A stretch of 64,000 nt of DNA from Candidatus Omnitrophota bacterium (GTDB lineage: Bacteria > Omnitrophota > Gorgyraeia > 2-01-FULL-45-10): assembly GCA_041650805.1 (NCBI GenBank), contig JBAZKM010000004.1, positions 41,636 through 105,635 of the forward strand. Reading direction: 5' to 3'. The translations under genes and the position numbers were made by a program. How positions within the stretch are numbered: the stretch's first letter is position 1; each line of letters opens with the position of its first letter. This document shows positions 20,284 to 64,000 of the stretch, in pieces. The notes beneath the pieces are model-generated. The model was not told where the DNA came from, made no database searches, and was given only the letters and a program-made list of their open reading frames with translations.

Positions 20284-23151
20284 CTAGTAAATGATTTTAT
20301 AATTAAATTTCAGCCAATCACTAATTTCTTTATTAATAAGTGGCATAACATGATCGATTAATCCCAGCTTTCTTTTTAGCAAGTCGCTGAACTTTTTTGT
20401 TACGCTTCGCGGATCTCTATCTGTTGTTACAACTTTTAAAATAATTTCTAAATATTTTCGTCTCATACCAGGGTCTGGTAGTTCGAGTATTATCAGTTTC
20501 ATAAAATCGGTTAAAACATTAAGTTGTGAATCTAGGGTGGTTTCTTTGGATTGCAGTATGTCAATAAATGCGTTAAAATCATTGGACGCTTGAAAACTAT
20601 TTTTTTCTGCACAGTATAATAGCATCTGGGCTGAGATTGAAAGATAATAATACTTTAGGCCTGCTAATTTAATTACCGCATCATAATATTCAGATTCACT
20701 CAGTAGCTTTTTTTGTACAAGCATAGTTAGAAAATTTTGTATGCTAAAGCTGTCTATTTTATAATCATTAAATAATAATTCTTTGAATAAAAGATCATCA
20801 CAAAATAACGGCAGTCTCTTCTCTTTGCATGTTTGTATAGAATAAATGTAGGGTCTCCCCAAAAGCTGTTCTTTAGTTTCTAGGTCTTTTTCTAATAGCT
20901 TATCTAGGCCAATTATATTAAAAGTATTTGCTGCAGCATCTTTGATTTTTTGTAGAAAGTCTATTTTATTTTTGCTACCTTCTGCAGAAAAATTTTGCCT
21001 ATAGGCTTTCCCCTCATGATAAAAGACCGACATTCCTTCACTATCCCCAAATCCTGTTTCATCGGCTATGCTCATATCTATTTCATCTATTGTCGCTCTG
21101 GTGACATAAACCTTATCAAAGTATTTTGTCGGCAATGTTAACATGTCTAAATACGCTAAAGTAAATAAAGAGAGCGGATCCAATAACACCTCTTTAGATT
21201 TATTAATTAATTCCTGTTCTTTTATTTGTTCTACGGCGCTTCCAGAGGCACAAAATAATCTATTGCCCATTGCAATTAAACCAGCCCAGGCAGTAAATAA
21301 ACTAATATTCATAAATTTAGACAATGCGCCTATTGTTAACTTTTTAGATAAATACATTTGGGTTATCTGTGATGCGTATTCCGATTTCCTCTTTACCATT
21401 TCTAGTACTTTTTCAGGATTCGCTTCAATTTTCTGTATTGTTTTATTGCTGGGGAAATATGTATTAAAATTGTTTAGTATACTTTGGAATAATTTTACAT
21501 ATTTACTTTTTATTCCCAAAATTTCAACTACCTCATCTCGCCCGCCTTCTATCTTAATCGTTATTTTATCGCCAATTTTTTTTCCATAAATCGCTTTGCC
21601 TAAATTTGATTCTTTATAGATTTCTGCCCTAACTAATGATGCCCCAGGATCATCTAATAATAAAAACTCGCTTTCTTGACCATCTTTTCTTAATCTTATA
21701 TAAAAATCTTCTTTAACAAATTCTGATTCTAAAATAAGATCGCCTGTTTTCTTGCCTTTTTTGAGAAATAAAAATAAGTATAAAAGCTGTGTCTCAGCAT
21801 CGCTATCAGCAAGGGCTACTACCTTATACGCTTGCTTAATTGCTTCTTCTGTATAATTAGTCCGTGCCAAGAATTTTGTTAGTAAAAGAAGGGTGTCTTT
21901 ATCATTAATACGGTTTTTGATCTCTAAGAGTGATTTTATCTGATGTTCTTTATCGCTCCCCCCGATGTCGTTGACCATTGCTGTGTAATTAATCTTATGC
22001 CTGTAATTTTGTGGTTCTATTTTTACCAATCTTAAATATAGATCCCTAGCTTTATCTAATGAGCCTAATTGTTGGTAAATCGCTGCTTGTAATTCTAACA
22101 CGAATGGGATATCGCCTTGTTTAGCTATTAGATTTTTACATACTTCTAAACATTTTTGTATGTTTTCCGCTCTGTTTTCTTTTGATTCGTATAGACATAT
22201 TAAATAATCTTTTATAAAATCGTCAAATAAAGATTCTGAAACTATAACTTCATATAGCGGTATTGCAGCATCATATGAGCCGATCTTTTTATAATGTTTG
22301 GCCAAATGTATTATTGCAATATTTTTTTCTGGTCCTGTAGCAGTTTTCATCACTTCCGTTATTAGTGATTTAAAAGCCTCTGTTTCTCCTTTAGCCCTTT
22401 TTATCTCTGCATCTAATAGTAGTATTTTTGGGTCTTTACCAAATTTGCTATATAGTTGCTTTAAAATACTGCTTGCTTCATCATAATCTTTTTTTGATAC
22501 GTAGGTTTCTGCTAATAACAAATTGGGTACAATATTTAAACTGAGAAGCTCTTCTTTATAATATTGTTTAATTGCAGCAATTGCTTCCTCAGCTCTCGGC
22601 TCTGGTTGATCTACATACGATGATACTAGGGTTGGCATTATGTCATCTTTACTAGCGCCCCCATCTAAAGCTTTCTTAAAATCTACTATTGCTTCATCTT
22701 GGTTTTTAGTTAATACATTTATTTTTGCTTTATTTGCATATGCAAGAGGGTTTTTAGGATCAATTTCCAATACGGCATTTATGTCGTTAATAGCAAGATC
22801 AAACTTATCTAATATGGCTCTAACGCTAGATCTGTTTATGTAGGCATCTTCTAGTAGGGTCTTTTTATCAGTTGTTTTTAACAAATTGATGGCTTGTGTT
22901 AATAATCGTTCCGATTCTTCTAAGTCTTTTATATTTTCTGAGGATAGACCAAAGCGCCAAGCTCGGCCTTTCATAATAAATTGCAGTAAATGCGAGCCAT
23001 ATGTTAAATAAATTTCTGGTATGTCCTTCGCCGTCTCTAACGCTTTCTGGAAATATTCCTTTGCTTTTACAATTTCGTCTTTTTTTGCATAGGCAAGAGC
23101 AATATTTAGCAAAGCGTTTTTATCTTTTTTAAATCTATCTTTAATTTCCAT
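20284..23151 (-). CDS. large TPR-repeat protein (955 aa) with uncharacterised C-terminal half, low-GC
   Basis: More than 10 TPR-like repeats in the N-terminal about 480 aa. The C-terminal half has a possible PIN-like segment (VLLDPLSLFTLAYLDMLTL...VYVTRATIDEI). GC about 30%. Confidence 0.55.
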   Translation of the reverse strand: MEIKDRFKKDKNALLNIALAYAKKDEIVKAKEYFQKALETAKDIPEIYLTYGSHLLQFIMKGRAWRFGLSSENIKDLEESERLLTQAINLLKTTDKKTLLEDAYINRSSVRAILDKFDLAINDINAVLEIDPKNPLAYANKAKINVLTKNQDEAIVDFKKALDGGASKDDIMPTLVSSYVDQPEPRAEEAIAAIKQYYKEELLSLNIVPNLLLAETYVSKKDYDEASSILKQLYSKFGKDPKILLLDAEIKRAKGETEAFKSLITEVMKTATGPEKNIAIIHLAKHYKKIGSYDAAIPLYEVIVSESLFDDFIKDYLICLYESKENRAENIQKCLEVCKNLIAKQGDIPFVLELQAAIYQQLGSLDKARDLYLRLVKIEPQNYRHKINYTAMVNDIGGSDKEHQIKSLLEIKNRINDKDTLLLLTKFLARTNYTEEAIKQAYKVVALADSDAETQLLYLFLFLKKGKKTGDLILESEFVKEDFYIRLRKDGQESEFLLLDDPGASLVRAEIYKESNLGKAIYGKKIGDKITIKIEGGRDEVVEILGIKSKYVKLFQSILNNFNTYFPSNKTIQKIEANPEKVLEMVKRKSEYASQITQMYLSKKLTIGALSKFMNISLFTAWAGLIAMGNRLFCASGSAVEQIKEQELINKSKEVLLDPLSLFTLAYLDMLTLPTKYFDKVYVTRATIDEIDMSIADETGFGDSEGMSVFYHEGKAYRQNFSAEGSKNKIDFLQKIKDAAANTFNIIGLDKLLEKDLETKEQLLGRPYIYSIQTCKEKRLPLFCDDLLFKELLFNDYKIDSFSIQNFLTMLVQKKLLSESEYYDAVIKLAGLKYYYLSISAQMLLYCAEKNSFQASNDFNAFIDILQSKETTLDSQLNVLTDFMKLIILELPDPGMRRKYLEIILKVVTTDRDPRSVTKKFSDLLKRKLGLIDHVMPLINKEISDWLKFNYKIIY

Positions 23152-23154
23152 TTT

Positions 23155-24147
23155 CTAACCCTCTTTACGATATAACGTCATCGCTTCTTCTGTCTTATCA
23201 GCAGCCATTAGTAATTCGAATTTTATATTAATTGCTTCGTTATCATTTGGATCCATTATTATAGCTGCATCTATATATGGTAGACCATCCAAAGGCTTGT
23301 CCTCAAATAAACATGCCAATGCTCTATTCTTACAAGCAATAAGTGAGGGTGGAGATATAAAATCATATGCAATTTTAAACATTTTCGACGCTTCTGCTTC
23401 ATCTCCTAATACTACATAACATACGCCAAGATTATTATAAACCTTGAATTTTGCAATCATTGGTACTTTAAGGTCTTTTTTAAAATCATTTATTAATTTT
23501 TCGTATATTATTTTTGCGCTTTCATGCTTGGCGTTATCCATTAAAACTTTGGCGTTATCGATTTCGGTTTTATACTTACACCCCTCTAGCGAATCGATGT
23601 CACTAACTTTGGCAGGTAAAATATTGGATCGAGATGTGCTTATAGATTGTTCATAAGTTAATTCTGTCGATGGTTTCTTTTCGAGCGTTTTTGCTATATT
23701 AGTTCGAACCTCTATCATCATTTTGTTAGTAGCTTCCATTGTTTGAGAAACAGAAAGAGGCACATGCTCTGCTTTGGGTAATTCTTCCGTAAAAATTTCT
23801 ATAAACCTAGCGCTTATTAACCCTATGTCTCGTTGCTTAAGATTAGTGCATTCCCCACATTTTTCGTTCAAACCTTTAGATATAGCGTCTTGCGCTATTT
23901 GAGGATTTATCTTGTAGTTTTGACCGATTACGGCGATAAGCTCTTTATTATTACTAAGCGTTTCCCATAAAATGATATCAATTCGTCCACTTTTTAATTC
24001 ATTAGAAACTCTTCGTGCAGATATAATAACTGCTTTTAGTATAGGCTCTTTTCTGAACAAAGAGAGGAGCTTTTCAACGGCCTTTTCTCCAAAAACCGTT
24101 GTTATTAACTCTGCTCCCTTTATACATATCTGGAATAATATTTCCAT
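23155..24147 (-). CDS. hypothetical protein with C-terminal TPR repeats, low-GC
   Basis: 330 aa. 4-nt gap to the downstream TPR gene (likely operon). No recognised N-terminal domain. Confidence 0.45.
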   Translation of the reverse strand: MEILFQICIKGAELITTVFGEKAVEKLLSLFRKEPILKAVIISARRVSNELKSGRIDIILWETLSNNKELIAVIGQNYKINPQIAQDAISKGLNEKCGECTNLKQRDIGLISARFIEIFTEELPKAEHVPLSVSQTMEATNKMMIEVRTNIAKTLEKKPSTELTYEQSISTSRSNILPAKVSDIDSLEGCKYKTEIDNAKVLMDNAKHESAKIIYEKLINDFKKDLKVPMIAKFKVYNNLGVCYVVLGDEAEASKMFKIAYDFISPPSLIACKNRALACLFEDKPLDGLPYIDAAIIMDPNDNEAINIKFELLMAADKTEEAMTLYRKEG

Positions 24148-24445: not shown

Positions 24446-24522
24446 TGGCGGGGACGACGGGGATCGAACCCGCGACCTTCAGATCGACAATCTGACGTTC
24501 TAACCAGCTGAACTACGTCCCC
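24446..24522 (-). tRNA. tRNA-Asp (anticodon GTC)
   Basis: 77 nt. GGGGACGTAGTTCAGCTGGTTAGAACG...anticodon loop TTGTCGA...CGGGTTCGATCCCCGTCGTCCCCGCCA. Perfect 7-bp acceptor stem. Close to E. coli tRNA-Asp. Confidence 0.85.
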
Positions 24523-27934: not shown

Positions 27935-28842
27935 CCGGTCCTCAGCTTTCCGACAATGCCTTTTACATTCTCTATCCCGTGTTCTTTCATGTACTCTTCG
28001 ATACCTCTCGCTGTGGCTGCCGCTGCGCCCGGATCCACAAAATTGGCGGTACCCACCTGGATGGCCGCTGCGCCCGCGAGCATGAACTCGAGCGCATCTT
28101 TATGGTCCATGATCCCGCCCATCCCTATTACGGGGATGCGGACCTTATTATAAACGGTCCAGACCATGCGAAGCGCGAGCGGCTTTATCGCCGGGCCGCT
28201 CAAACCGCCCGTGACATTTCCCAGCACCGGTCTTTGTGCCTCTATATCAACGGCCATTCCCAGAAACGTGTTCACGAGGGAGACCGCGTCCGCGCCCGCT
28301 TCCTCGGCGGCCTTCGCTATCCTGGAGATATCGGTCACGTTGGGGGATAGTTTTGCTATGACGGTAAGGCCTGTCGCGCGCCGGACCGCCTTGACCGTCT
28401 CGTACGTACCTTTCTCGTCCTGGGCTATCAGACGGTCCTTACCGCCGTACCGTATATTCGGGCAGGAGAGGTTCAGTTCGAGCGCTGCGGCTTTAGTGCC
28501 GACGGCCTTTGCCAGCTCCTTGAACTCGTCTTCATCATCCCCCGCGATACTTGCTATCACCGGGGTCCCGAACTTTTTAAGGGACGGGAGCGTCTTCTTA
28601 AGGAATATATCTACACCTTTATTCTCGAGCCCGATCGAATTTAGCATACCGGAAGGCGTCTCTATGACACGGGGCGGCGGGTTGCCTATCCTGGGGCGCA
28701 GGGTGACCGTCTTGGCCACGATAGCGCCCAACGACCGGATGTCGGTCAGTTCTCCGTACCCGTCCCCGAACGTCCCCGACGCCGCCATGACGGGGTTCTT
28801 CAGTTTCAGCTTTCCTATCTTTACGCTCAGATCCGGCTTCAC
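27931..28842 (-). CDS. pyrD: dihydroorotate dehydrogenase, class 1B catalytic subunit
   Basis: NPVMAASGTFG...SIGLENKG...GGI motifs. Confidence 0.85.
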   Translation of the reverse strand: MKPDLSVKIGKLKLKNPVMAASGTFGDGYGELTDIRSLGAIVAKTVTLRPRIGNPPPRVIETPSGMLNSIGLENKGVDIFLKKTLPSLKKFGTPVIASIAGDDEDEFKELAKAVGTKAAALELNLSCPNIRYGGKDRLIAQDEKGTYETVKAVRRATGLTVIAKLSPNVTDISRIAKAAEEAGADAVSLVNTFLGMAVDIEAQRPVLGNVTGGLSGPAIKPLALRMVWTVYNKVRIPVIGMGGIMDHKDALEFMLAGAAAIQVGTANFVDPGAAAATARGIEEYMKEHGIENVKGIVGKLRTG

Positions 28843-29687
28843 CAGATTATCTCCTTTGCGTTAAATACCGGCCCGTCCTTACAGACCATCTTGTATTCGT
28901 ATTGGGTATTGGGTATAGGGTATCGGGTATCGGGTTTGGTAAATTGCGATCTGACTTTTACCGGACAGCCGAGGCAGACTCCCACGCCGCAGGCCATCTT
29001 CTCTTCGAGCGAGACCTGGCAATCGGCGTTATGCGCCGCGGCGATCTTAGCTACCGCTTTCAACATTGCGTTAGGACCGCAAGCGTATACGGTCCATGGT
29101 CCATGGTCGACGGTCGACAGTAAAGACCCTAAGATTTCAGTGATGAATCCTTTGCACCCTTCGCTCCCGTCTTCCGTTGAAACTAATGTTTCTATGCCAA
29201 GTTCTTTAAACTCTTTTTTGCAAATTAACTGTTTTTTTGTTTTTGCGCCTATTAAGGCGTATATTTTTTTACCGTGGGCCGTGGACTGTGGACTGTGGAC
29301 TAATTTTTCTGCCAGCGCAACGAGCGGCGCGACCCCCATGCCGCCGGCGACGAGTACAACTGTGGACCGTGGACTGTGGACTGTGGACTTAATGTCGAAC
29401 CCTTTCCCCAGCGGCCCGATCACGTCGAGAAGCTCTCCCGGTTTACGCCTAGCCAATATCTCCGTGCCCTTGCCCACGACCTCATATAATATCTCGATCC
29501 CGCCCCTTATTATCCTGTGTACGCTGAAAGGCCTGCGAAGCAGCGGATCGACAGCGTCGGAAGGGCGCACCTCTATAAATTGGCCCGGTGCCGTCGCGCG
29601 CGCAAGATACGGCGCCCCGAGCCGCATCTTGTAGTACCGCGGCCCTGCCTTCCTGTTCTCCAGTATCTTCGCGCTAAGTTGTCTCAT
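28839..29687 (-). CDS. pyrK: dihydroorotate dehydrogenase electron-transfer subunit, carrying in-frame heptamer-repeat insertions
   Basis: FAD/NAD-binding ferredoxin-reductase fold and C-terminal Cys cluster (CGVGVCLGC). Contains the repeat-encoded peptides HSPRSTV, HSPQSTA, VDHGPWTV and PDTRYPIPNTQY. Confidence 0.8.
   Translation of the reverse strand: MRQLSAKILENRKAGPRYYKMRLGAPYLARATAPGQFIEVRPSDAVDPLLRRPFSVHRIIRGGIEILYEVVGKGTEILARRKPGELLDVIGPLGKGFDIKSTVHSPRSTVVLVAGGMGVAPLVALAEKLVHSPQSTAHGKKIYALIGAKTKKQLICKKEFKELGIETLVSTEDGSEGCKGFITEILGSLLSTVDHGPWTVYACGPNAMLKAVAKIAAAHNADCQVSLEEKMACGVGVCLGCPVKVRSQFTKPDTRYPIPNTQYEYKMVCKDGPVFNAKEIIW
28893..28938. repeat. heptamer tandem array (GTATNGG) x5 to x6, in-frame inside pyrK
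   Basis: gtattcg tattggg tattggg tataggg tatcggg tatcggg. On the pyrK strand this encodes KPDTRYPIPNTQYEYK. Confidence 0.7.
29274..29389. repeat. two heptamer arrays (GTGGACT/GTGGACC) inside pyrK (29274-29301 and 29360-29389), plus a related (GGTCCAT) array at 29091-29118
   Basis: Direct reading gives gtgggcc gtggact gtggact gtggact. Each array is a multiple of 21 nt in-frame, encoding 7-aa units (V)HSP(R/Q)ST(V/A). Confidence 0.7.
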
Positions 29688-38572: not shown

Positions 38573-38634
38573 GCTTTCAAACAATTTCAAATTACCAATG
38601 TCAAATTAATTGGATATTTGTAATTTGTCATTGG

Positions 38635-41109
<2,475 letters not shown>

Positions 41110-41133: not shown

Positions 41134-41205
41134 GGTCCATAGTCGATAGTCCATGGTCCATAGTAAAAACTTTGGCCGTCGACTGTGGACCGTGGACTGT
41201 TGACC
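41134..41205. repeat. heptamer-based palindromic REP-like element in the gyrB-gyrA intergenic region
   Basis: ggtccat agtcgat agtccat ggtccat ag ...loop... gtcgact gtggacc gtggact gttgacc (imperfect inverted arms). Confidence 0.5.
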
Positions 41206-51637: not shown

Positions 51638-51642
51638 AAAGC

Positions 51643-51715
51643 GGTCCACAGTCGACTGTCCATGGTCGACCGTATAAAGCATTTACTGTGGACCATCGAC
51701 TATGGACCGTGGACT
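51643..51715. repeat. heptamer-based palindromic REP-like element between ndk and yicC
   Basis: ggtccac agtcgac tgtccat ggtcgac c ...loop... ctgtggacc atcgact atggacc gtggact (inverted arms). Confidence 0.5.
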
Positions 51716-55068: not shown

Positions 55069-55143
55069 GGCGGCTTAGCCAAGTGGTAAGGCAAAGGTCT
55101 GCAAAACCTTTATGCTCCGGTTCAAATCCGGAAGCCGCCTCCA
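55069..55143 (+). tRNA. tRNA-Cys (anticodon GCA)
   Basis: GGCGGCTTAGCCAAGTGGTAAGGCAAAGGTCTGCAAAACCTTTATGCTCCGGTTCAAATCCGGAAGCCGCCTCCA. Confidence 0.8.
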
Positions 55144-55168: not shown

Positions 55169-55245
55169 GGACGCGTAGCTCAGTTGGTTAGAGTGCTTCC
55201 TTGACATGGAAGAGGTCACAGGTTCGACCCCTGTCGCGTCCACCA
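55169..55245 (+). tRNA. tRNA-Val (anticodon GAC)
   Basis: GGACGCGTAGCTCAGTTGGTTAGAGTGCTTCCTTGACATGGAAGAGGTCACAGGTTCGACCCCTGTCGCGTCCACCA. Confidence 0.85.
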
Positions 55246-55362: not shown

Positions 55363-55620
55363 AGGGAGAGGGTATATCCCCCACCACTTAAATGCCCTCG
55401 CCTTATAATATAGTTATATCTCAAAATTCCCTCTTAATAATAGTTAATACATAAAAAAGCAAGATATTACCTCTTGTCTATATCATAATAAGCAGGTAAA
55501 CTTATGATATAAGACGCTAGAGTGCACATTACTTGCCTGTATGTTAAGCAGATCCGGGCAGGTAAATTTTTTTCATCCGTTGTTTTATGTATTTACAAAG
55601 AGCGAAGGAAACTATTGGAT

Positions 55621-58600
55621 ATGTCAGACGCTAGATCTGGTAGTACTCCTAATGTGATCTTGAATAGACGCCCATTCAGGGTGACGATCGCCATTGTCAC
55701 CCTGTGGGCGTTTTTACTTAATATTGTAGCATACGATCTGGCCTGGGCTGCCGGAACGCCTACAGAGCTTACTAGCGTCGGCCCTGATAGAGCCGGCGGC
55801 CCGGGCGTTGTGAAGGAACTGGACGCTTCGACATTTTCATTACCCCAGTATCTCGGTTCTATCCGCGACTCCTGGTCCCCTAAACCCTATACCCTATACC
55901 CTATACCCAATACTATAATCCACATCCAAGACGCCCACTGCAACTATTATGCCCAGCACAAGATAAAAGAGATAATAGAGTATCTGAATAGAGAATACGG
56001 CGTAGATACCGTAAATCTCGAGGGTGGGGCGATGGGTTACGACCTGTCCCCGTTTACGGATATACGCGACAAAGATATCCGCGAAAAGGCGACCGACCAT
56101 TTCGTGAAAGAGGGTTTGGTGAACGGCGCAGAGTACTTCGCCATCAACAACCCGGAGAAGATAGCGCTTTGGGGGGTAGAGGATGCCCGGCTCTATGTCG
56201 ATAACCTCAATGTCTACAGGAGTTCAGCCGTCCGCAAGGCCGAGATCGAGAAGCATATTAAATCGCTCAACCACATCATCAACAACTTAAAACCGAAGAT
56301 ATATTCGAAAGAGCTTCTCGAGTTCGACCTGGCATATTCCTCATACAAGGCGCACAATTCGGAATTCAAAGATTACCTGTCATACCTCATAACGAAAGCA
56401 AAAGAGAGGGCCATCAACGTAAAACAATTTACAAATATCTACATCCTAAGCCGGACGCTCGGCGAGGAGGGGAAGGTCGATTTTAAAAGAGCGAATATCG
56501 AACGCGACGTTATGATAGATGCGCTCGGGAAACGGCTTTCGAAAAGCGCTCTCGAGGAACTTGTGGTGAAGACGGTTGAATTCAAGGCGGAGAGGATATC
56601 GCAAAAGGAATTTTACGCGTACCTCACAGGTAAGGCGAAAGTCGCCGGCTTGGACATGGACGGCTTCCCCGAACTCCGCAGGTATATTATCTATATCTCT
56701 ATGTACGAAGCGGTCGATAAGCCGAGCGTCATGGAAGAGATAGATGCCCTGGAAGCGAAGCTTCTGGAAGGCCTATATCGGAACGAGGAAGAGAGGACCT
56801 TAAGCCGTCTTTCGAAGAACCTGGCGTTATCGAAGAACATATTCGACATCTCGCTTACCAGGGACGATTACCGTTACTACAAGAAGAACGAGGCGTCGTT
56901 CGATATGCGTAACTACGCCGTGTTCATCGAGCGGGAAGCGCCTGCGCGCGGTATCACGGCAAAGCTCGACAACGATATAGCCCACCTCGACAACTATAGG
57001 CGGGAGATGGCGAAGTTCTACGAGTATTCATTCAAGCGCGATGAGGCGTTCATACGGAATATTAAGTTAGGGGGTATAGGGTATAGGGTATCGGGTATAG
57101 TAACCCGAAAACCAGGGGCCGCGATCCTCGTGACCGGTGGGTTCCATTCCGAGAACCTCGCAGAACTATTCAAGAAGAACGATATCGCCTACGTATCGAT
57201 CATGCCGAACTTCAGATCCGGCGACGAGTATGAGTGCCCGTACTTCAAGATCCTTTCAGGCGAGAAGAATATCAGGATAAAAGAGTCATTACCGGCGGTC
57301 CTCACCGGCATGCTCCCGGTACCGGATCAGCTGAATCCGGCGGTGATGAGAGAGCTCGAAAAAACCCAAAAACCGTTGGGCGCGGGAAGGATGAGGATGC
57401 AGGGGGAGCATGCATTTACACAGTTTTTGACGCGCATAGAACCGCTCCTTCTTATGTCTGAGGCCCTGTTGCCCATAATAATAGACAGGGCCATACAAAG
57501 ATATGAGAGGACGAAAGAGCCGCAGGTTATCAATATAGGGATCGTGGGGGCAGGATATGGCCAGGAACCCGTATCCGTGGCGATCGCCCTTGATAGAAAG
57601 ATAAGAAGTATGCTTGAGGACCGGCGTCTTCCCGGGGATTCTGTGAAGCTTGCAGTCCATATCATGAGCAGGCCGTCCCCCATGCTCGATAAGCTTAGAG
57701 ATAATGGAATAAGGTATCCGGCAGATTCGATCGCGCGACAGATCGCTCTCGGCAATATCTCAGAGACCGAACGGGACAGGTATTTTGAAGATACGGGAAC
57801 AGGGTCAAGGCGCACCCAGGCCCTGAACGATATCATGAAGTTTTATGAAGTCGATCTTTTGGACGATCCGCAGGCAGAGGTGCCGCCTCTCGATGCGCTA
57901 TTGGTCCACAATATCCTGCAGTATCTGATGCCGGGTGATATGCAAAGTGCGCAAGCGGCATTCGGATATCTGGGTTCAATGGTAAAGCCGGGCGGGATCA
58001 TTTCAGTCACGTCCCCGGAAGGAACCGCCGACAGATACGTTAAGGCAGCGTATGATGAGATGTTTAGCGGCCGCGGCGGATATGAGCAAGCGAAATTTGA
58101 AGGGTTACCCGTAGAGACAGTATTTTTTGTGAAGAAGACACCGCCCGCGCCGCAGGCCGGGTTCGGTCGCCTTGAGGTGATCTCAGGCGTAGCGGTGCTG
58201 ACGGCAGCGGCAGCGACTTTCCACGCCGCAGGCATCGCCGCGGCGCTCGTTGTCGGGATCGCCGGCGCGCTCGCAGCAGCGCTCTTATTCAGGTATCTCA
58301 ACCGGGCAACGTCGGAAGAAAAGACGGCCACACCGACACCTCATGAGGCCATGATAAGAGAATTATGGGGAAGCGTTCCGCGACCGATCGGTGATGCGGA
58401 ATTGCGAAAAGCCATCATAGAAAGATCTTTTTCTGGTGAAGCAGCCATGCGATGGGGTGCTGACACGTTGTCGGACCTTATCGATTTTAATAAATCGAGG
58501 GCAGGGACGCTATATATTACGGCTATCATAGAAGCCAGTTTACCCAAGTTAGGGATAATGATACCGGACAATTTTATGTACGGCCCTGCAATGACACCGG

Positions 58601-61600
58601 AAGAGATAAGATCGGCAAAAGAACGCGCAGAACTCCAGGCCATCGAGAATAGGATATCTCGTTTTACCGATGAATTAAGCGCTCTATTTGCAGACCTTGA
58701 TCGCATCCGCGGGCTTATCGAAAAAGACCTGATAACGGCGGAGCAGTTAAAAACAGCCACAAGATTATCCGGCGGAAATATGAAAATAGCCTGTGAGACG
58801 TTTGCCGCATTGGAAGGTTCGATAAGAAGCAGACAGGATATAGAAAATTTAATAAGATCGGCCGAGCGCAATAACAACATATTTATCATAAATGCGGCCA
58901 ATTTTGGTATTAATGACACCTTCAGCTGGCTTGCCCGCCATAGAGAATTTATCAATCGTTATGGGACTAACGGTATAGCTGTTTTAGGGCAGGTGCTGCG
59001 CTCCGGCCGCGTTCTTTTCGGTTCAAATCAATCTGAGAAGATCTGTGATTTTCTGGAAAAAAATGCAAGATATGTCGAATTATACGGGATGGAATATTTA
59101 TGTACTGCGGTAGCCGTATTAAATGATGAGCAGCTTCAGAATATGAGCAGCCCTCGTCGCATTAATATCTTCGAACCTACCCTCAACATCGGCAAGGTTA
59201 TCACAGAGGATAGCATGCTTAACGGTGCAAGGGTATTCTTCGAAGACCTCGTGGCAGCAAATAATGAAAGCGATAGATTGAAGCCAGAGGCCCAATTTAA
59301 CGAGTCTATAATAAGAACGATTAATGAAAATACCATGTCGCGGTACGGTCTTGACAAGATGCTTATCCTAAGCAGATCCCACAACTTAACAGCAGTGGCT
59401 ATTTATTTTACGAGAATAAGGCCTGTGGTAGATAAGGTCGGCATACAGGCGTTTATCGACGCAGTAGAAAATAAGGGCGAGATATCCGCAGATCTCGTGG
59501 CGGCTATCCCGGAACTTCTCAGGGTAGATCTGACCTTTGCCGGCGCGGGCCATCAAAAGGCTCAAGAATATGCCAACTATATATTGGGCACGATAGCGAA
59601 AAGGTCTACCGATGCTCTGCAGGCGCTTGTAGAAGCCACTACAGATACAGATGATGATATAAAAAGAGGCGCATATTCAGTTTTGGATACGGTTATGCCA
59701 AATCTCGGCGCTACTCTCAGATTTCACGGCGACATAGGGCCGGTAGGGCGCAAGATCGTCGTAGAATTTCTGGCCATGTCGGACCTTGAAAGATTAAGCC
59801 CATACAGGTTATATCTGTACATAGGGCGATTGGCCGAGAACGGGAATACTATAGACCGTATAAAGAACGCGGATAGACGCAGGCAGGCGATAAATAATGT
59901 CATAAACAAGGCCGACAGGGATTATGGAAACTTCACAAAAAGCGTGTACTATGGAGGAAAGACCGGGGATTATTCAATGTATGTCGGCCTTCTCAGCATG
60001 CTTTCCGATGAGGATTTTGAGAAAGACGTTCATGATATAGCCGCGGCCCTAAACGTCACCGCAAAAGACAGGAGTATAACTGATACATTGAGCGAGATCG
60101 ATGGAAAAGTCATCACACAACCTGTGAACGTTCAATATGTAAGCGCGTTCGATTTCGAAACAAAAAAGACGGAACTGGCGCTGCCGGACGATTTAGATAT
60201 CGAATTCAAAAATATGATCAGCACGATTTTCGGGTCAGCTGGAGAAGCGGATATTGACACCATCCTGGCGAGGATCACCGCCGTCAAGGCGAGTGTTGAT
60301 GCCCTGGAAGGAAGGGATAAAGCGGAAGTGACCGCGTTTTTCAACGGTAATAATGTACCTGATAACCTCCGGGCGCAGTGGAATACGGAAGATCCTAAAA
60401 GACACGAAACCGCTAAAGTAAATATCAAAAATTTTCTATACACCAGGATGGATATTTCAGACGAAGAGAAGACGGTATTGTTCCTGAAAGTTTTTGAACA
60501 CATGGGCGCGGAATTATTGCGAAAATACATAACTCCCGGGGCCGAGCTTTCCCCGGATGAGAGGAACCTTATCTTTTCGATGCTGAGAGAGGCGGACAGA
60601 CATCTTGCTGATACCATGCAGGAAATGGGGCTTGGCGCGCTGGCCGACAACCTAAAGAAGAAACCCGAATGGAAACTGATGAAGACATTACAGGGTAAGA
60701 TAAAGACGACAGTTGACGGTAATGTAAGGTCTGGCAAAAAAATAGAGCTGGTTTTCAGGGCAAAGAACCTTCTTACCCTCTATCAGGGGGCCTACTCGGG
60801 GACGTGTTTCGGAGACCGCCCTTACGATATAGCGCGACCGGACCTTTTTGTCGTCACTATATTAAGTAACGGAGAGCTTGCGGGTTCTGTCCTGTTCAAT
60901 ATACAAGGCAATAAATTGATAATGCTCGGTTTTGACCCGTCAGAAGCGCTGATGTGCGGCCTTGATGACACAAAGAGAAATGAGCTCGTAGACCATATCA
61001 TGGCCGAGATATTCAGTTTCACCAAAGCGCGTATCGTGGATCAGGACGGCAAAATTACGGCAGAGAACGATTATGAGTTATTGATCACTACAGAAGCAGG
61101 AGGCCTATCGAACAGGGACAAGGTGCAGGATTATATAATAAGTGAATACGTAACCGGGGGTAAGGTAAGAGTGGACCGGAGGACCTATCATCCACTATAT
61201 CAATACAGCGTTACTTCGGCGCAAAAGGCGAAGACAAGAAATGTAAAACCGAAAATGATCAAAACCACGCCTTCACCCGAGGCAGGATTCGGCGGTCTTG
61301 AAGTTATGACAGGCATTGCGGTATTGGGGGCGGCAGTGGCCGCCTTCCACGCCGCAGGCATCGCCGCGGCGCTCGCCGTCGGGATAGGCGGCGCGCTCGC
61401 AGCAGTGCTCTTGTTCAGATACCTCAGCCGCAATATTTCAGTGTCTCCGGCCGTTACCGCATCTACTAAGGGGACATCCCAGAGCAGTATGACCTGGGAC
61501 CCCATCGGATATTTTGACCTTGTAAAGCGTTTTGGAGGGCATGATTATGGCGCCGATCCGGCAGCGGACAAGATGCTGCTTGAACAGACAGGGAAGTGGT

Positions 61601-64000
61601 TCGGGACTAACGAGCCCGACTGGGGCGTCTCATTAAACGAAATGCGGGGCAAGAAAGGCGTTTATATCGGCGTCGCATACGGAGGGCAGAACCTTTCGCG
61701 GCTTTGCTACGGCGATTTTGAACAGGCCCTTATCGTAGACAGCAACCCCTTCGTAACCGAAATATTCATGCCTATAAGGGCGGTCCTTATTGCCATGGCC
61801 AGGTCTCGCGCGGAATATCTCGGTTTTCTTGCCGGCGTACGATTAAATGAGACCGAACTGGAAATGCTCAGGGATGCCGACCTTTCTCATATCGAATCCT
61901 ATATCTCAGGCAGGGCATTCACGGAAAAGGACAGGACGGCCGCGTTCAGAAACGAACTCTGGGGCAGGATACAGGGGATATTCCCTTCTCATTTAGCCGG
62001 ACAGGCAAGCACATTCTGGGAACTTTATGCGCCGGGAGGCTTCGGTCTCTCCTCCATGGTGAGAAATATGGATCGCGGCGACAGCTGGCTGTCAAGCGAA
62101 AGGAATTTCGCCAGGATACGAAAGATGACCTCGGAGGGCAGAATCTACGGTGTAACGGCCGATTGGGCGGACGCAGCGTCGATAAGCCCGATAGCGCGCT
62201 ATATGTCGGATCACGGATTGAAGGCGTCCGTTATTTATGTTTCCAATATCATGGAACGGATCGACGAGATAGAAGACAGGACTAAAAGAGAAAAGACCGC
62301 TAACGCGTTCAGGGGCAATATCCTCTCGATGCCCCGTACAGATGATGCCGTCCTTTTGTCTGTTTCTGTTTCCGAAGGTACCGGTCTCGGCAGGCCTTAT
62401 AAAACAATGACCAGGAGCATAGAGGAAGAGGCAAAGAGGACGGTCTTTGACAGGAGCCGGGGAGATAATTATGCCGTTATTGCCCCTGTTCCGTTCTCCG
62501 CGCAGGCAGGTTTCGGCATGGTCGAGGTCATGACCGGCGTCACGATACTGGGAGCGGCAGCGGCCGCCTTCCACGCCGCAGGCATCGCCGCGGCGCTCGC
62601 CGTCGGGATTGGCGGCACGATCGCAATCATACTCTTCTTAAAATACGCGGGGCGCGCGAAGGCAGGAGAGAAGGTGATCCTATTGGTGCCCGAACCTGCG
62701 CCGTCAAAAGTGTATATGCGCAACGCGGCCATGAATATCCTTTTCCTGGCTGTATTGGCGGTCATCCCCACGGTCCTGAGCCTGCTCGAGCCGAACCTGC
62801 CCATGCTTTCGCTGGTGCTGGACATGTCCCGCGAAACCGGGTTGTCGAAGGTGGTTTTCTACCTGTTAGGGGTAGCAGGCATTACAAAGTTGGTTGCCAA
62901 TACGGCCATGGTGATAATGCGGGACGGATCGGTCAGGGCAATCAGGTCGCTCAGGTCTTTTGGGCGTTTCAACTCACGCGATGTCATTAAGCTCCTCGCG
63001 GTCCTCATCGTCTTTATCGGGGCCGCGGAGTGGAAAGCGGTGAGTTTCATGGCCCGCTCAGATGTCACTACAATAGACGCGCACGGCGCCAGGATCAGGG
63101 TATATTTCGACCCGGCCAGGTCGGTACGGGACGAGGTGGGCAGTTATGTCGGGCGCTATCTGAATAACCTGCCGGCAGGGCACACCGAAGGGCTTGAGCG
63201 CATATCCGTCCTGCCCTATGATGCGCTCGGGGCGTTCGAAACGGCCAACGATTCGGCCGGGACGTATCGTTTTTTAACCGACACGGTCAGGATCAGGGAG
63301 GGCAGGGTCGAAGACGGCAGCGTCGTCTATCATGAGATAGGCCATCACGTCAACGCCGCCGTATTGGGCGCAGGGCAGAAGATGAAGTGGAATGCGCTGC
63401 ACAGGGCAAGCGGGGATAGTGACGCCGGTTACGTCTCAGCATACGCCAAAACTTCCGCATCGGAGGATTTTGCCGAGACGTATGCGGCATACTGCACGGG
63501 CTCGCTCCATTGGTTGGCAGATACGGACGGTATCCTTGCCGAAAAGGTGCTATTCGTCACCCGCCTTTTTATGGAGCAGGGCGCAGGCGGCGCCAGGTAC
63601 CTTGTCTATTTCAGCGATGATAACGAAATAACAGCGTCTACCAAGCATCGTCTCAGGATAGAAGAGAAGTATATGGGGGTCGATTATCTTCGGGAAAGAG
63701 TGGGGGCGCTCAGATGGTTTTTGGAAAAAGACCGCGGCCTGAGAGATATCATGAGTAACGATGATGCGGATACATTCAGAAAGTGGCTCGAGGAGAGACA
63801 TAGCGGGACCGGAATAAATGTCAACAGTACTTATCTTGTCCCGCTTTCCATGGATGACCTATGCAGTATGCGGAGTAACCTTGATTATGCCTCGGAATAC
63901 GTCGCCAGAACCGCGGGCAGGGCGCGGGACGAAAGGATCCAGAGGCAGGCATCTGCCCTTGTCGGCAGCATAGCGGGCTACAAAAAGAAGCTGGGTATAT
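55621..64000 (+). CDS. giant multi-domain membrane protein, N-terminal 2793 codons (continues past window end)
   Basis: Manually translated with no stop from ATG 55621 (RBS GAAGGAAA; in-frame TAA at 55510) to 64000. Signal anchor at the N-terminus. TraB/Tiki-like (IIHIQDAH...VTGGFHSEN), CheR-like (IGIVGAGYGQEP...LVHNILQYL...VKPGGII) and ATLF-like zincin (YHEIGHHV...SEDFAETYAAY) blocks. Three conserved two-helix hydrophobic units (predicted TM hairpins) plus further TM helices near 62.7-63.0 kb. Confidence 0.7.
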   Translation, partial: MSDARSGSTPNVILNRRPFRVTIAIVTLWAFLLNIVAYDLAWAAGTPTELTSVGPDRAGGPGVVKELDASTFSLPQYLGSIRDSWSPKPYTLYPIPNTIIHIQDAHCNYYAQHKIKEIIEYLNREYGVDTVNLEGGAMGYDLSPFTDIRDKDIREKATDHFVKEGLVNGAEYFAINNPEKIALWGVEDARLYVDNLNVYRSSAVRKAEIEKHIKSLNHIINNLKPKIYSKELLEFDLAYSSYKAHNSEFKDYLSYLITKAKERAINVKQFTNIYILSRTLGEEGKVDFKRANIERDVMIDALGKRLSKSALEELVVKTVEFKAERISQKEFYAYLTGKAKVAGLDMDGFPELRRYIIYISMYEAVDKPSVMEEIDALEAKLLEGLYRNEEERTLSRLSKNLALSKNIFDISLTRDDYRYYKKNEASFDMRNYAVFIEREAPARGITAKLDNDIAHLDNYRREMAKFYEYSFKRDEAFIRNIKLGGIGYRVSGIVTRKPGAAILVTGGFHSENLAELFKKNDIAYVSIMPNFRSGDEYECPYFKILSGEKNIRIKESLPAVLTGMLPVPDQLNPAVMRELEKTQKPLGAGRMRMQGEHAFTQFLTRIEPLLLMSEALLPIIIDRAIQRYERTKEPQVINIGIVGAGYGQEPVSVAIALDRKIRSMLEDRRLPGDSVKLAVHIMSRPSPMLDKLRDNGIRYPADSIARQIALGNISETERDRYFEDTGTGSRRTQALNDIMKFYEVDLLDDPQAEVPPLDALLVHNILQYLMPGDMQSAQAAFGYLGSMVKPGGIISVTSPEGTADRYVKAAYDEMFSGRGGYEQAKFEGLPVETVFFVKKTPPAPQAGFGRLEVISGVAVLTAAAATFHAAGIAAALVVGIAGALAAALLFRYLNRATSEEKTATPTPHEAMIRELWGSVPRPIGDAELRKAIIERSFSGEAAMRWGADTLSDLIDFNKSRAGTLYITAIIEASLPKLGIMIPDNFMYGPAMTPEEIRSAKERAELQAIENRISRFTDELSALFADLDRIRGLIEKDLITAEQLKTATRLSGGNMKIACETFAALEGSIRSRQDIENLIRSAERNNNIFIINAANFGINDTFSWLARHREFINRYGTNGIAVLGQVLRSGRVLFGSNQSEKICDFLEKNARYVELYGMEYLCTAVAVLNDEQLQNMSSPRRINIFEPTLNIGKVITEDSMLNGARVFFEDLVAANNESDRLKPEAQFNESIIRTINENTMSRYGLDKMLILSRSHNLTAVAIYFTRIRPVVDKVGIQAFIDAVENKGEISADLVAAIPELLRVDLTFAGAGHQKAQEYANYILGTIAKRSTDALQALVEATTDTDDDIKRGAYSVLDTVMPNLGATLRFHGDIGPVGRKIVVEFLAMSDLERLSPYRLYLYIGRLAENGNTIDRIKNADRRRQAINNVINKADRDYGNFTKSVYYGGKTGDYSMYVGLLSMLSDEDFEKDVHDIAAALNVTAKDRSITDTLSEIDGKVITQPVNVQYVSAFDFETKKTELALPDDLDIEFKNMISTIFGSAGEADIDTILARITAVKASVDALEGRDKAEVTAFFNGNNVPDNLRAQWNTEDPKRHETAKVNIKNFLYTRMDISDEEKTVLFLKVFEHMGAELLRKYITPGAELSPDERNLIFSMLREADRHLADTMQEMGLGALADNLKKKPEWKLMKTLQGKIKTTVDGNVRSGKKIELVFRAKNLLTLYQGAYSGTCFGDRPYDIARPDLFVVTILSNGELAGSVLFNIQGNKLIMLGFDPSEALMCGLDDTKRNELVDHIMAEIFSFTKARIVDQDGKITAENDYELLITTEAGGLSNRDKVQDYIISEYVTGGKVRVDRRTYHPLYQYSVTSAQKAKTRNVKPKMIKTTPSPEAGFGGLEVMTGIAVLGAAVAAFHAAGIAAALAVGIGGALAAVLLFRYLSRNISVSPAVTASTKGTSQSSMTWDPIGYFDLVKRFGGHDYGADPAADKMLLEQTGKWFGTNEPDWGVSLNEMRGKKGVYIGVAYGGQNLSRLCYGDFEQALIVDSNPFVTEIFMPIRAVLIAMARSRAEYLGFLAGVRLNETELEMLRDADLSHIESYISGRAFTEKDRTAAFRNELWGRIQGIFPSHLAGQASTFWELYAPGGFGLSSMVRNMDRGDSWLSSERNFARIRKMTSEGRIYGVTADWADAASISPIARYMSDHGLKASVIYVSNIMERIDEIEDRTKREKTANAFRGNILSMPRTDDAVLLSVSVSEGTGLGRPYKTMTRSIEEEAKRTVFDRSRGDNYAVIAPVPFSAQAGFGMVEVMTGVTILGAAAAAFHAAGIAAALAVGIGGTIAIILFLKYAGRAKAGEKVILLVPEPAPSKVYMRNAAMNILFLAVLAVIPTVLSLLEPNLPMLSLVLDMSRETGLSKVVFYLLGVAGITKLVANTAMVIMRDGSVRAIRSLRSFGRFNSRDVIKLLAVLIVFIGAAEWKAVSFMARSDVTTIDAHGARIRVYFDPARSVRDEVGSYVGRYLNNLPAGHTEGLERISVLPYDALGAFETANDSAGTYRFLTDTVRIREGRVEDGSVVYHEIGHHVNAAVLGAGQKMKWNALHRASGDSDAGYVSAYAKTSASEDFAETYAAYCTGSLHWLADTDGILAEKVLFVTRLFMEQGAGGARYLVYFSDDNEITASTKHRLRIEEKYMGVDYLRERVGALRWFLEKDRGLRDIMSNDDADTFRKWLEERHSGTGINVNSTYLVPLSMDDLCSMRSNLDYASEYVARTAGRARDERIQRQASALVGSIAGYKKKLGI
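55885..55913. repeat. heptamer array (CCTATAC) x4 inside the giant ORF, inverted relative to 57074-57100
   Basis: ccctata ccctata ccctata cccaatac encodes PYTLYPIPNT. Confidence 0.6.
57074..57100. repeat. heptamer array (GTATNGG) x4 inside the giant ORF
   Basis: gtatagg gtatagg gtatcgg gtatag encodes GIGYRVSGI. The C in the third unit avoids an in-frame TAG. Confidence 0.6.
58150..58300 (+). repeat. intragenic repeat R1 encoding the hydrophobic hairpin unit AGFGRLEVISGVAVLTAAAATFHAAGIAAALVVGIAGALAAALLFRYL
   Basis: Shares an identical 31-nt core (ttccacgccgcaggcatcgccgcggcgctcg) with R2 and R3. Confidence 0.7.
61282..61431 (+). repeat. intragenic repeat R2 (AGFGGLEVMTGIAVLGAAVAAFHAAGIAAALAVGIGGALAAVLLFRYL)
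   Basis: Same 31-nt core; about 85% nt identity overall to R1 and R3. Confidence 0.7.
62504..62649 (+). repeat. intragenic repeat R3 (AGFGMVEVMTGVTILGAAAAAFHAAGIAAALAVGIGGTIAIILFLKY)
   Basis: Same 31-nt core. Followed by additional TM helices. Confidence 0.7.

Follow-up and report, generated by a model that had tools for sequence, protein, structure and literature searches.

How do two tandem arrays of the same seven-nucleotide unit, reverse complements of each other, come to lie inside a single protein-coding gene, both of them translated? The question is raised by a giant open reading frame (ORF) in a 64,000-nucleotide stretch of DNA (hereafter, the window) from a Candidatus Omnitrophota bacterium (contig JBAZKM010000004.1). 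The window is the replication-origin region of the 203.7-kb metagenomic contig k141_736944 (ENA ERZ27247363). We conclude, with a probability of roughly 0.7, that the two arrays, A and B, are in-frame, translated and tolerated copies of a dispersed GGGTATA/CCCTATA heptamer repeat carrying one G3 tract per 7 nt. The elements concerned are the following.

55618..64000, plus strand: giant ORF, running past the window end (>2794 aa), with an N-terminal membrane anchor and a conserved alpha/beta plus helical domain.
55878..55913, plus strand: array A, CCCTAAA, three CCCTATA units, CCCAATA and a final C; the sense strand is C-rich (direct reading and Tandem Repeats Finder, TRF).
57072..57100, plus strand: array B, GGGTATA, GGGTATA, GGGTATC, GGGTATA and a final G; the sense strand is G-rich (direct reading and TRF).
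57091..57093, plus strand: codon TCG (Ser492), with C57092 in place of the consensus A (read from the sequence).

Read directly, array A consists of CCTAAAC CCTATAC CCTATAC CCTATAC CCAATAC at 55879-55913, and array B of GTATAGG GTATAGG GTATCGG GTATAGT at 57074-57101. TRF reports 5.1 copies of period 7 with 93% matches at 55878-55913, and 4.1 copies of period 7 with 90% matches at 57072-57100; in the numbering of contig k141_736944 these intervals are 97474-97509 and 98668-98696. A preliminary description of this DNA had presented the two as an inverted pair of heptamer arrays, and its coordinates and peptides agree with both readings to within 1-2 bases. The arrays share the GGGTATA/CCCTATA unit family in opposite orientations, as reverse complements with 1160 nt between the arms: the arms span 27 nt at 93% complementarity (55887-55913 and 57074-57100), a looser alignment extends into the flanks over 40 nt at 83%, and the longest exact stretch in common is 20 nt. 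Both are head-to-tail runs of about three or more 7-nt units, far above chance expectation. A two-unit probe, the 14-mer CCTATACCCTATAC with at most one mismatch, has 8 matches in the window where shuffled sequences predict 0.01, and all eight fall in A, B and a third array at 28906-28926. Contiguous perfect units number three in A and only two in B.

A single stop-free frame, 55513-64000+ with its first ATG at 55618, spans A and B, confirming that both arrays are translated (...SPKPYTLYPIPNTII... in the region of A and ...KLGGIGYRVSGIVTR... in that of B). Numbered from this ATG, array A encodes residues 87-99 (PKPYTLYPIPNT) and array B residues 485-495 (GGIGYRVSGIV). The C-rich sense orientation, which is that of A, is stop-free in all frames. 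The G-rich orientation is constrained: because 7 equals 1 modulo 3, an array of GTATAGG presents an in-frame TAG at every third unit. The codons across B read GGT ATA GGG TAT AGG GTA TCG GGT ATA GTA; a consensus third unit would read GTA TAG, and no further unit of B has an in-frame TAG. C57092, within codon 492, is the sole departure from the consensus inside the array, and it eliminates the sole potential in-frame TAG.

This substitution had been put forward as a sign of selection on a repeat inserted into coding DNA. The point is right in substance—in the array whose sense strand is G-rich, the change falls on the only position that could give an in-frame TAG—but as evidence for selection it is nearly tautological, a condition of survivorship. 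With the ORF unbroken and colinear with the orthologous genes, an in-frame TAG is bound to be absent; since an intact ORF cannot hold a TAG, the match between substitution and frame is not independent evidence for a mutation after insertion. Another gene of the window, pyrK (28839-29687, minus strand; Pfam PF10418 and PF00175), bears on the same point, with four translated heptamer arrays from two families.

28899..28935, minus strand: pyrK array of the GGGTATA family; on the plus strand two GTATTGG units, one GTATAGG and two GTATCGG; translated as …KPDTRYPIPNTQY….
29089-29115, 29281-29301 and 29359-29389, minus strand: pyrK arrays of the GTGGACT/GGTCCAT family, translated.

In the GGGTATA-family array of pyrK, four of the five units are TAG-free variants (GTATCGG twice, GTATTGG twice) with T or C at the TAG position. 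The gene is decoded from the opposite strand, where the unit reads CCNATAC and no frame gives a stop, so the genome's repeat pool already holds TAG-free units, available without stop-related selection. Frame-specific, stop-avoiding variants had been proposed as something to look for in other coding arrays; variants of this kind do occur in pyrK, but free of stop pressure, which comes close to the absence of frame-specific bias that the preliminary description had itself named as telling against its reading. The 71.5 kb of genome formed by the window and a 7.5-kb leftward extension of the contig contains no intergenic GGGTATA-family array, and the extension contains no heptamer array at all. 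Among 592 non-coding units from other phyla, the A of the TAG was changed in 8 of 135 substitutions; this set, chosen for three perfect units and drawn from other genomes, was not used as a neutral baseline.

Selection on repeats within coding sequences is instead visible at the level of orientation. We examined 37 heptamer arrays lying well within long open frames, taken from the window and 120 listed loci, many of which were picked for three perfect CCTATAC units. Stops are confined to the antisense unit in 17 of these arrays and to the sense unit in 2. Array B is one of these two, and both are short and interrupted. It is this orientation bias of in-ORF arrays, and not the TCG codon, that does show selection.

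Comparison with 69 orthologous giant genes identifies A and B as extra coding sequence in length-variable loops. Orthologues of residues 1-640 are nearly all annotated as Omnitrophota, and the best is 59% identical. Loop A, between the DSW and IHIQDAH motifs, has 15 residues here against a median of 10 (range 8-36) in the orthologues; loop B, between NIK and TGGFH, has 22 against a median of 12 (range 8-51). A confident AlphaFold2 (AF2) model built on the 69-sequence alignment (mean predicted local distance difference test score, pLDDT, 83.9; predicted template modelling score, pTM, 0.77) places array A in the loop leading to beta-strand 99-105, which carries the IIHIQDAH motif, and array B in the loop leading to beta-strand 501-507, which carries TGGFH. 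The invariant residues H102, Q104, D105, H107, G507, G508 and H510 are located on or just after these two strands, while the local pLDDT at the arrays falls to 77 (A) and 67 (B). If the usual geometry of parallel alpha/beta folds applies, the inserts would sit on the face away from the conserved motif.

The DNA of five orthologous loci was compared at the same two loops:

L123, loops A and B: AACTCCN heptamers at both, in direct orientation.
L122: loop A filled by heptamers of the units AGACCGG and GACCATC, loop B by a palindromic element.
L205, loops A and B: the GTCATCCTGAG…CGAAGGATC palindromic element at both.
L206, loop B: AAGGGAC/AAGGGTC heptamers.
L207: no repeat at loop A or B.

Different families in the same loops of orthologues are what is expected if each genome's own repeat pool colonises loops, and repeat colonisation of coding loops looks common in Omnitrophota.

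Several further features of the giant ORF and its orthologues were observed along the way. Orthologues have translated palindromic elements of the GTCATCCTGAG…CGAAGGATC type, with peptides such as VILSDSEGS and VITSPATEGGGRSNL, as well as other long insertions, both at these two loops and at additional ones (2626-2739 of L122; 1079-1213 and 2396-2536 of L205; rows P0059, P0091 and P0007 of alignment A2). Beyond its N-terminal domain, the giant ORF includes a CheR-like methyltransferase, a DUF7790 domain, a metallopeptidase-like motif and repeated transmembrane hairpins. Three near-identical hairpin modules (58159-58299, 61285-61392 and 62509-62616; …AGFGxxEVxxGxxxLxAAxAxFHAAGIAAALxVGIxG…LLFRYL) may mark the boundaries of its functional segments. 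The N-terminal domain (55618-57537, residues 1-640) has no credible Pfam match, and a fold search against the PDB gave non-significant hits, the best being the erythromycin-esterase-like structures 3b55 and 2rad, then EreC (E >= 0.04). We take these as a hint that the domain is possibly a distant hydrolase of the Tiki/TraB/Ere type. Giant multi-transmembrane proteins of the Archaeovorin type have been described for Omnitrophota (bioRxiv 10.1101/2023.11.21.568195), and the giant ORF fits that description; the Omnitrophota giant-gene papers that we examined do not mention heptamer or tandem repeats.

The pyrK copy shows the same behaviour in an unrelated gene, and shares the peptide YPIPNT with array A. 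Aligned with the solved PyrK 5ksw_B, the region 28899-28935 corresponds to a 13-residue gap in a loop of the Fe-S domain, mostly due to the array; gaps of 6 and 2 residues coincide with 29281-29301 and 29359-29389, and one of 4 residues stands immediately upstream of 29089-29115. The Pfam match across 28899-28935 likewise stretches 53 residues over a 41-position Fe-S profile. The excess at this array lies beside the cysteines of the Fe-S cluster, and an antisense frame on the plus strand (28891-29634) is open over nearly the whole of pyrK; we record both as separate observations.

The unit itself is widespread. The exact 21-mer (CCTATAC)x3, searched for in a collection of species-representative genomes, is found in at least 120 stretches (L002-L121) from many phyla: the listed matches, to which the counts that follow refer, come from Bacteroidota, Ignavibacteria, Calditrichota, Elusimicrobiota, Hydrogenedentota, Omnitrophota, Chloroflexota, Patescibacteria, Methylomirabilota, Cyanobacteria, Nitrosovibrio and others. 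Such a distribution means that the local sequence is not the source of the unit. These loci contain 321 period-7 arrays against 0, 14, 25 and 6 arrays of periods 5, 6, 8 and 9, and 191 of the 321 have units other than CCTATAC. Most genomes with a listed locus hold several heptamer families, and same-family array pairs 0.1-3 kb apart often have one gene between them. A literature search with the heptamer string returned primer noise only.

This spread bears on the idea that A and B each originated locally, through replication slippage of a proto-repeat present by chance, their likeness being a coincidence or a convergence on a quadruplex-forming unit. Heptamers are the commonest long simple sequence repeat (SSR) unit in bacteria and a favoured slippage unit in many of them, at least as Mrazek 2007 is summarised in PMC4679880. 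All three GGGTATA-family arrays keep their GGG tracts intact and vary in the 4-nt spacer alone, and the quadruplex pattern G3+N1-7 x4 is satisfied, as a motif match only, by the reverse complement of A, by B and by the pyrK array at 28899-28935. We nevertheless regard a local origin as very improbable: three arrays of one unit occur within 64 kb and have end variants in common, the identical 21-mer recurs across phyla, and orthologues hold different families at the same loops. The pyrK array has the same end units as the reverse complement of A (GTATTGG and, at the opposite end, GTTT(A)GG), which favours the copying of a structured element over independent slippage. From these sequence comparisons we infer that both arrays were copied in from a repeat that already existed and did not form by local slippage.

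Tolerated copying could operate as follows. The genome carries the GGGTATA/CCCTATA family at several places; A and B each fill a poorly conserved loop before a core beta-strand in the conserved N-terminal domain of the giant protein, and the extra residues would be tolerated at both loops. A copy would persist in a gene only if its length keeps the frame and its sense strand has no in-frame stop, which would leave the G-rich orientation (B) viable only as a short array with a TAG-free third unit (GTATCGG). The inverted relation of A and B would follow from two orientations of insertion, and the pair would give both mRNA and DNA the capacity for a stem of ~27-29 bp. Such a stem would be a by-product, not the reason for the arrays, which presumably have no function of their own in the giant gene.

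Several observations weigh against this explanation, and some of them suit an alternative in which the stem is what matters, an A:B helix of ~27-29 bp in the giant mRNA that might serve as a processing or regulatory site, for example as a target of RNase III. The minimum free energy (MFE) and centroid folds predicted for 55860-57120 both pair A with B, and the predicted duplex has an energy of -47.4 kcal/mol with 20 contiguous pairs. Same-family pairs separated by >100 bp to 3 kb are inverted in 19 cases and direct in 5, although these counts are not fully independent since some loci come from one metagenome-assembled genome (MAG); the excess indicates that inverted pairing is favoured in general and may be selected at A and B too. 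In three of five genes of the orthologue group in which both loops carry inserts (that of the window, L123 and L205), one family occupies both loops, which hints at coupling. No close relative was found: the best orthologue is 59% identical, and a scan of JGI metagenomes for the sequences on either side of array B, with a gap of variable length between them, gave 0 matches.

An analogy for a functional stem is offered by the complementary arrays that bracket genes of the PF05635 family, described below, and by the stems of rRNA intervening sequences. The analogy is imperfect: the order of a C-rich followed by a G-rich array is opposite to that of the PF05635 cassettes. The variant units of A and B are not compensatory, C57092 standing opposite a T, and the stem would fall within coding sequence, to be unwound by the translating ribosomes. 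Pairing is not conserved among orthologues either, given that L123 and L205 carry direct repeats at both loops. An RNA element thus appears unlikely.

The preliminary description had also suggested that the inverted pair could mediate inversion of the intervening 1.16-kb segment. Recombination between the arrays would then flip this segment as a DNA switch, for which the 27-nt arms with 93% complementarity flanking it would provide the substrate; perfect identity, however, covers only 20 nt. If 55914-57071 is inverted in silico, a stop appears 15 codons after A, and each of the three frames is closed by 10-24 stops, so that inversion could act as an off switch only. Neither an invertase nor an integrase is present within 3 kb upstream, where coaBC, a gene for a pilin-like protein and two tRNA genes are located, nor was one detected in the ORF, and the present orientation is colinear with all orthologues. 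With neither an adjacent recombinase nor a meaningful second orientation, inversion is the least probable of the readings that we weighed, and the suggestion is unsupported.

A different kind of switch would be a slipped-strand contingency locus, in which gain or loss of one 7-nt unit in A or B shifts the frame and toggles the giant protein. The unit length is not a multiple of three, and array A (codons 87-99) comes early in the ORF, where phase-variation SSRs are enriched according to Lin and Kussell as cited in PMC4692102. The giant Omnitrophota proteins have moreover been proposed as surface or predation factors (bioRxiv 10.1101/2023.11.21.568195). However, slippage would hardly be efficient in runs of only three (A) and two (B) contiguous perfect units, the tracts are stabilised by the variant units that interrupt them, and a like array is found in the housekeeping gene pyrK, where on/off switching makes little sense. 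We consider slipped-strand switching improbable.

The wider survey of the heptamer brought up a gene family that is repeatedly bracketed by complementary arrays. Among ten ORFs located between inverted (CCCTATA)n pairs in other genomes, four, from three phyla, encode the PF05635 "23S rRNA-intervening sequence protein", a four-helix bundle resembling bAvd (Avd-like). A profile search of the repeat-picked loci detected eight full-length PF05635 genes and a weaker ninth match; it missed the gene of L036, which Pfam confirmed. Each of the eight full-length genes has a heptamer array no more than ~100 nt from one or both of its ends, in loci that were themselves picked for the repeat. We also assembled an unbiased set of 80 metagenome loci (L125-L204) by protein similarity alone; eight of eight checked are PF05635. 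Within 200 nt of the gene, 28 of 72 loci of this set have a period-7 array upstream, 24 of 68 have one downstream and 14 of 60 have one on each side. Other periods are rare near the genes (0-1 for periods 5, 6 and 9; 5-9 for period 8), and 29 arrays were counted in 131.6 kb away from them. Read on the sense strand, 33 of 35 upstream arrays are G-rich and 23 of 30 downstream arrays C-rich. The unit varies from locus to locus (GGGTATA, GGGGACT, AGGCAGT, CAGTGGG, CGGGTTT and others), while in 9 of the 18 loci with arrays on both sides the upstream unit is exactly the downstream one in reverse complement, and in 14 of 18 the two differ by at most one base. Such whole-unit covariation points to a selected stem around PF05635 genes, as in rRNA intervening sequences. 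Predicted duplex energies of the 150-nt flanks have a median of -85 against -63 for mismatched controls, a modest difference on which we do not rely. Representative loci are these:

L003, 2389-2973: PF05635 cassette.
L005, 7234-7678: PF05635 cassette.
L040, 6364-6883 and 1227-1837: PF05635 cassettes.
L007, 994-1681: PF05635 locus.
L042, 14-420: PF05635 locus.
L165, 1470-1900: PF05635 locus.

The cassettes of L040, L003 and L005 (Calditrichaceae, Elusimicrobiota) have arms of the GGGTATA type or a closely related one, and in L007 (Bacteroidetes) and L042 one flank of the gene carries an array of the GGGTATA family. The form in L165 is compact: a G-array, a Shine-Dalgarno sequence, the ORF and a C-array that overlaps the stop codon. 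Its flanking unit, CCCCAGT/GGGGACT, is that of STRR1, one of the cyanobacterial short tandemly repeated repetitive (STRR) sequences. We found no literature linking PF05635 to heptamer repeats, but the searched literature is incomplete and the novelty provisional.

Arrays A and B might be solitary offshoots of a horizontally spreading cassette (G-array, PF05635 gene, C-array) that, itself or through its protein, would seed heptamers at new sites, coding loops among them, with an A/B stem of the RNase III type excising or destabilising the 1.16-kb piece of mRNA. If true, this would tie long-unexplained heptamer repeats, STRR and their relatives, to a defined gene family. At A and B, however, the segment between the arrays is a conserved domain of the giant protein and the polarity runs C then G, and a search of the window ORFs with the cassette proteins (hmmsearch) detected no PF05635 gene. 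The link to the cassettes consequently runs through the common repeat family alone, and we judge an origin of this kind unlikely, preferring tolerated copies of the dispersed repeat.

The rest of the window conforms to a genome rich in heptamers. A simple period scan gives seven arrays of period 7 and 0-1 for each other period of 4-12, TRF adds further, weaker period-7 arrays, and three families coexist (GGGTATA, GTGGACT/GGTCCAT and ATTTGTC); the predominance of period 7 and the coexistence of several families hold for the 71.5 kb of genome seen. Coding sequences hold all three GGGTATA-family arrays and roughly half of the window's heptamer arrays overall. The family here is thus not mainly intergenic; an intergenic location is a habit of the described cases rather than a structural property. 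The remaining arrays include the following.

38582..38640: intergenic pair, AATTTCA-type and ATTTGTC-type, between a tRNA and the end of gyrA; arms 20 nt, 90% complementary, 12 nt apart.
41135..41205: adjacent arrays, GTCCATA-type then GTGGACY-type in opposite orientation, between gyrB and gyrA.
51642..51709: intergenic inverted pair of GGTCCAC/GTGGACC type, upstream of yicC; arms 21 nt, 86% complementary, 26 nt apart.

The arrays at 41135-41205 are complementary at ~5 of 7 positions, below what the repeat finder reports, and it confirmed no complementary arms there or within pyrK: the gyrB-gyrA and pyrK arrays are related units in opposite orientation, not hairpins. Genes of the window comprise rnpA-yidC-parAB, dnaA-dnaN-dciA-gyrB-gyrA and the pyr cluster. 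Rfam finds five tRNAs only, and no match at the arrays; two of the tRNA genes (55069-55140 and 55169-55242) stand directly upstream of the giant ORF, followed by ~375 nt of non-coding sequence up to the start codon. A low-GC island at 20284-24147 (32-33% against ~54% elsewhere), beside a tRNA at 24449-24522, encodes a 955-aa TPR/GreAB-C/PIN protein (PF20698, TPR-GreAB-C-PIN conflict system) and a 330-aa TPR protein, and is probably a horizontally acquired defence island.

For the giant gene, the outcome is mostly clarifying: the arrays would be tolerated passengers in permissive loops, not a switch. In Omnitrophota, heptamers and other small repeats are repeatedly translated in conserved and even housekeeping genes, which adds to the few cases of selfish DNA in proteins. 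Such arrays could flag loops to engineer, or to ignore in annotation. Setting a 7-nt period against a 3-nt code, the stop-bearing orientation would need repair at each third unit, which predicts a maximum array length and a pattern of variants. The association between PF05635 and heptamers, strong and undescribed in the searched literature, is the part most worth a dedicated study, and if confirmed it would provide a testable handle on heptamer repeats.

The class to which A and B belong is already known: they are a translated member of the dispersed bacterial heptamer repeats, the nearest relatives being GGGAATC of Xanthomonas, the STRR sequences and TAACTGA of Beggiatoaceae. The STRR heptamers of heterocystous cyanobacteria were reportedly described by Mazel and colleagues in 1990 as intergenic fingerprinting targets, and they are not known to have a coding role; they too are dispersed in several heptamer families within one genome. 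Translation brings A and B close to the Rickettsia palindromic elements (RPE), which Ogata and colleagues reportedly found in frame in protein genes in 2000. These are selfish repeats translated in frame in unrelated, even essential genes, at tolerant surface positions. The GGGTATA family is likewise found in frame in unrelated genes (the giant ORF and pyrK), as extra residues relative to homologues, in surface loops. RPE proper are palindromes of 100-150 bp whose orientation constraint is not tied to a unit-periodic stop, whereas here the inserts are tandem heptamers of 27-37 nt and no such palindrome. Invertons and shufflons share inverted repeats flanking a gene segment, but here no recombinase is nearby, the inverted state is non-coding and the arms are a generic dispersed repeat.

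The TAACTGA arrays common to Beggiatoaceae, cyanobacteria and Bacteroidetes (MacGregor 2015, PMC4679880) present a close parallel, one heptamer in distant phyla without a known transfer mechanism. In one orientation every frame contains stops and ORFs end there; the reverse is occasionally translated, mostly at protein peripheries (PMC4679880). Unlike the repeat studied here, TAACTGA is not G-rich and is mostly found just upstream of start codons, and its description reports neither a rescue of the stop-bearing orientation by variant units nor an inverted pair within one ORF (PMC4679880). Closest in structure are the GGGAATC arrays of Xanthomonas and the GGGGA[C/T]T arrays of Nostoc/Anabaena (Rehm et al. 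2015, PMC4692102, where Calothrix heptamers are also mentioned): a 7-nt unit with one G3-4 tract, about four units per array, dispersed on both strands, with frequent inverted pairs and a G-quadruplex motif. The GGGAATC and GGGGAYT arrays favour four units, fold into quadruplexes in vitro and are frequently arranged as convergent inverted pairs, 70-75 of them per Xanthomonas genome (PMC4692102). Inverted pairing is frequent in the present family as well, at A and B and across the listed loci. What sets it apart from these heptamers is the GGGTATA unit, the translation of A, B and the pyrK copy, and the placement of the A and B arms, which are 1.16 kb apart and not adjacent.

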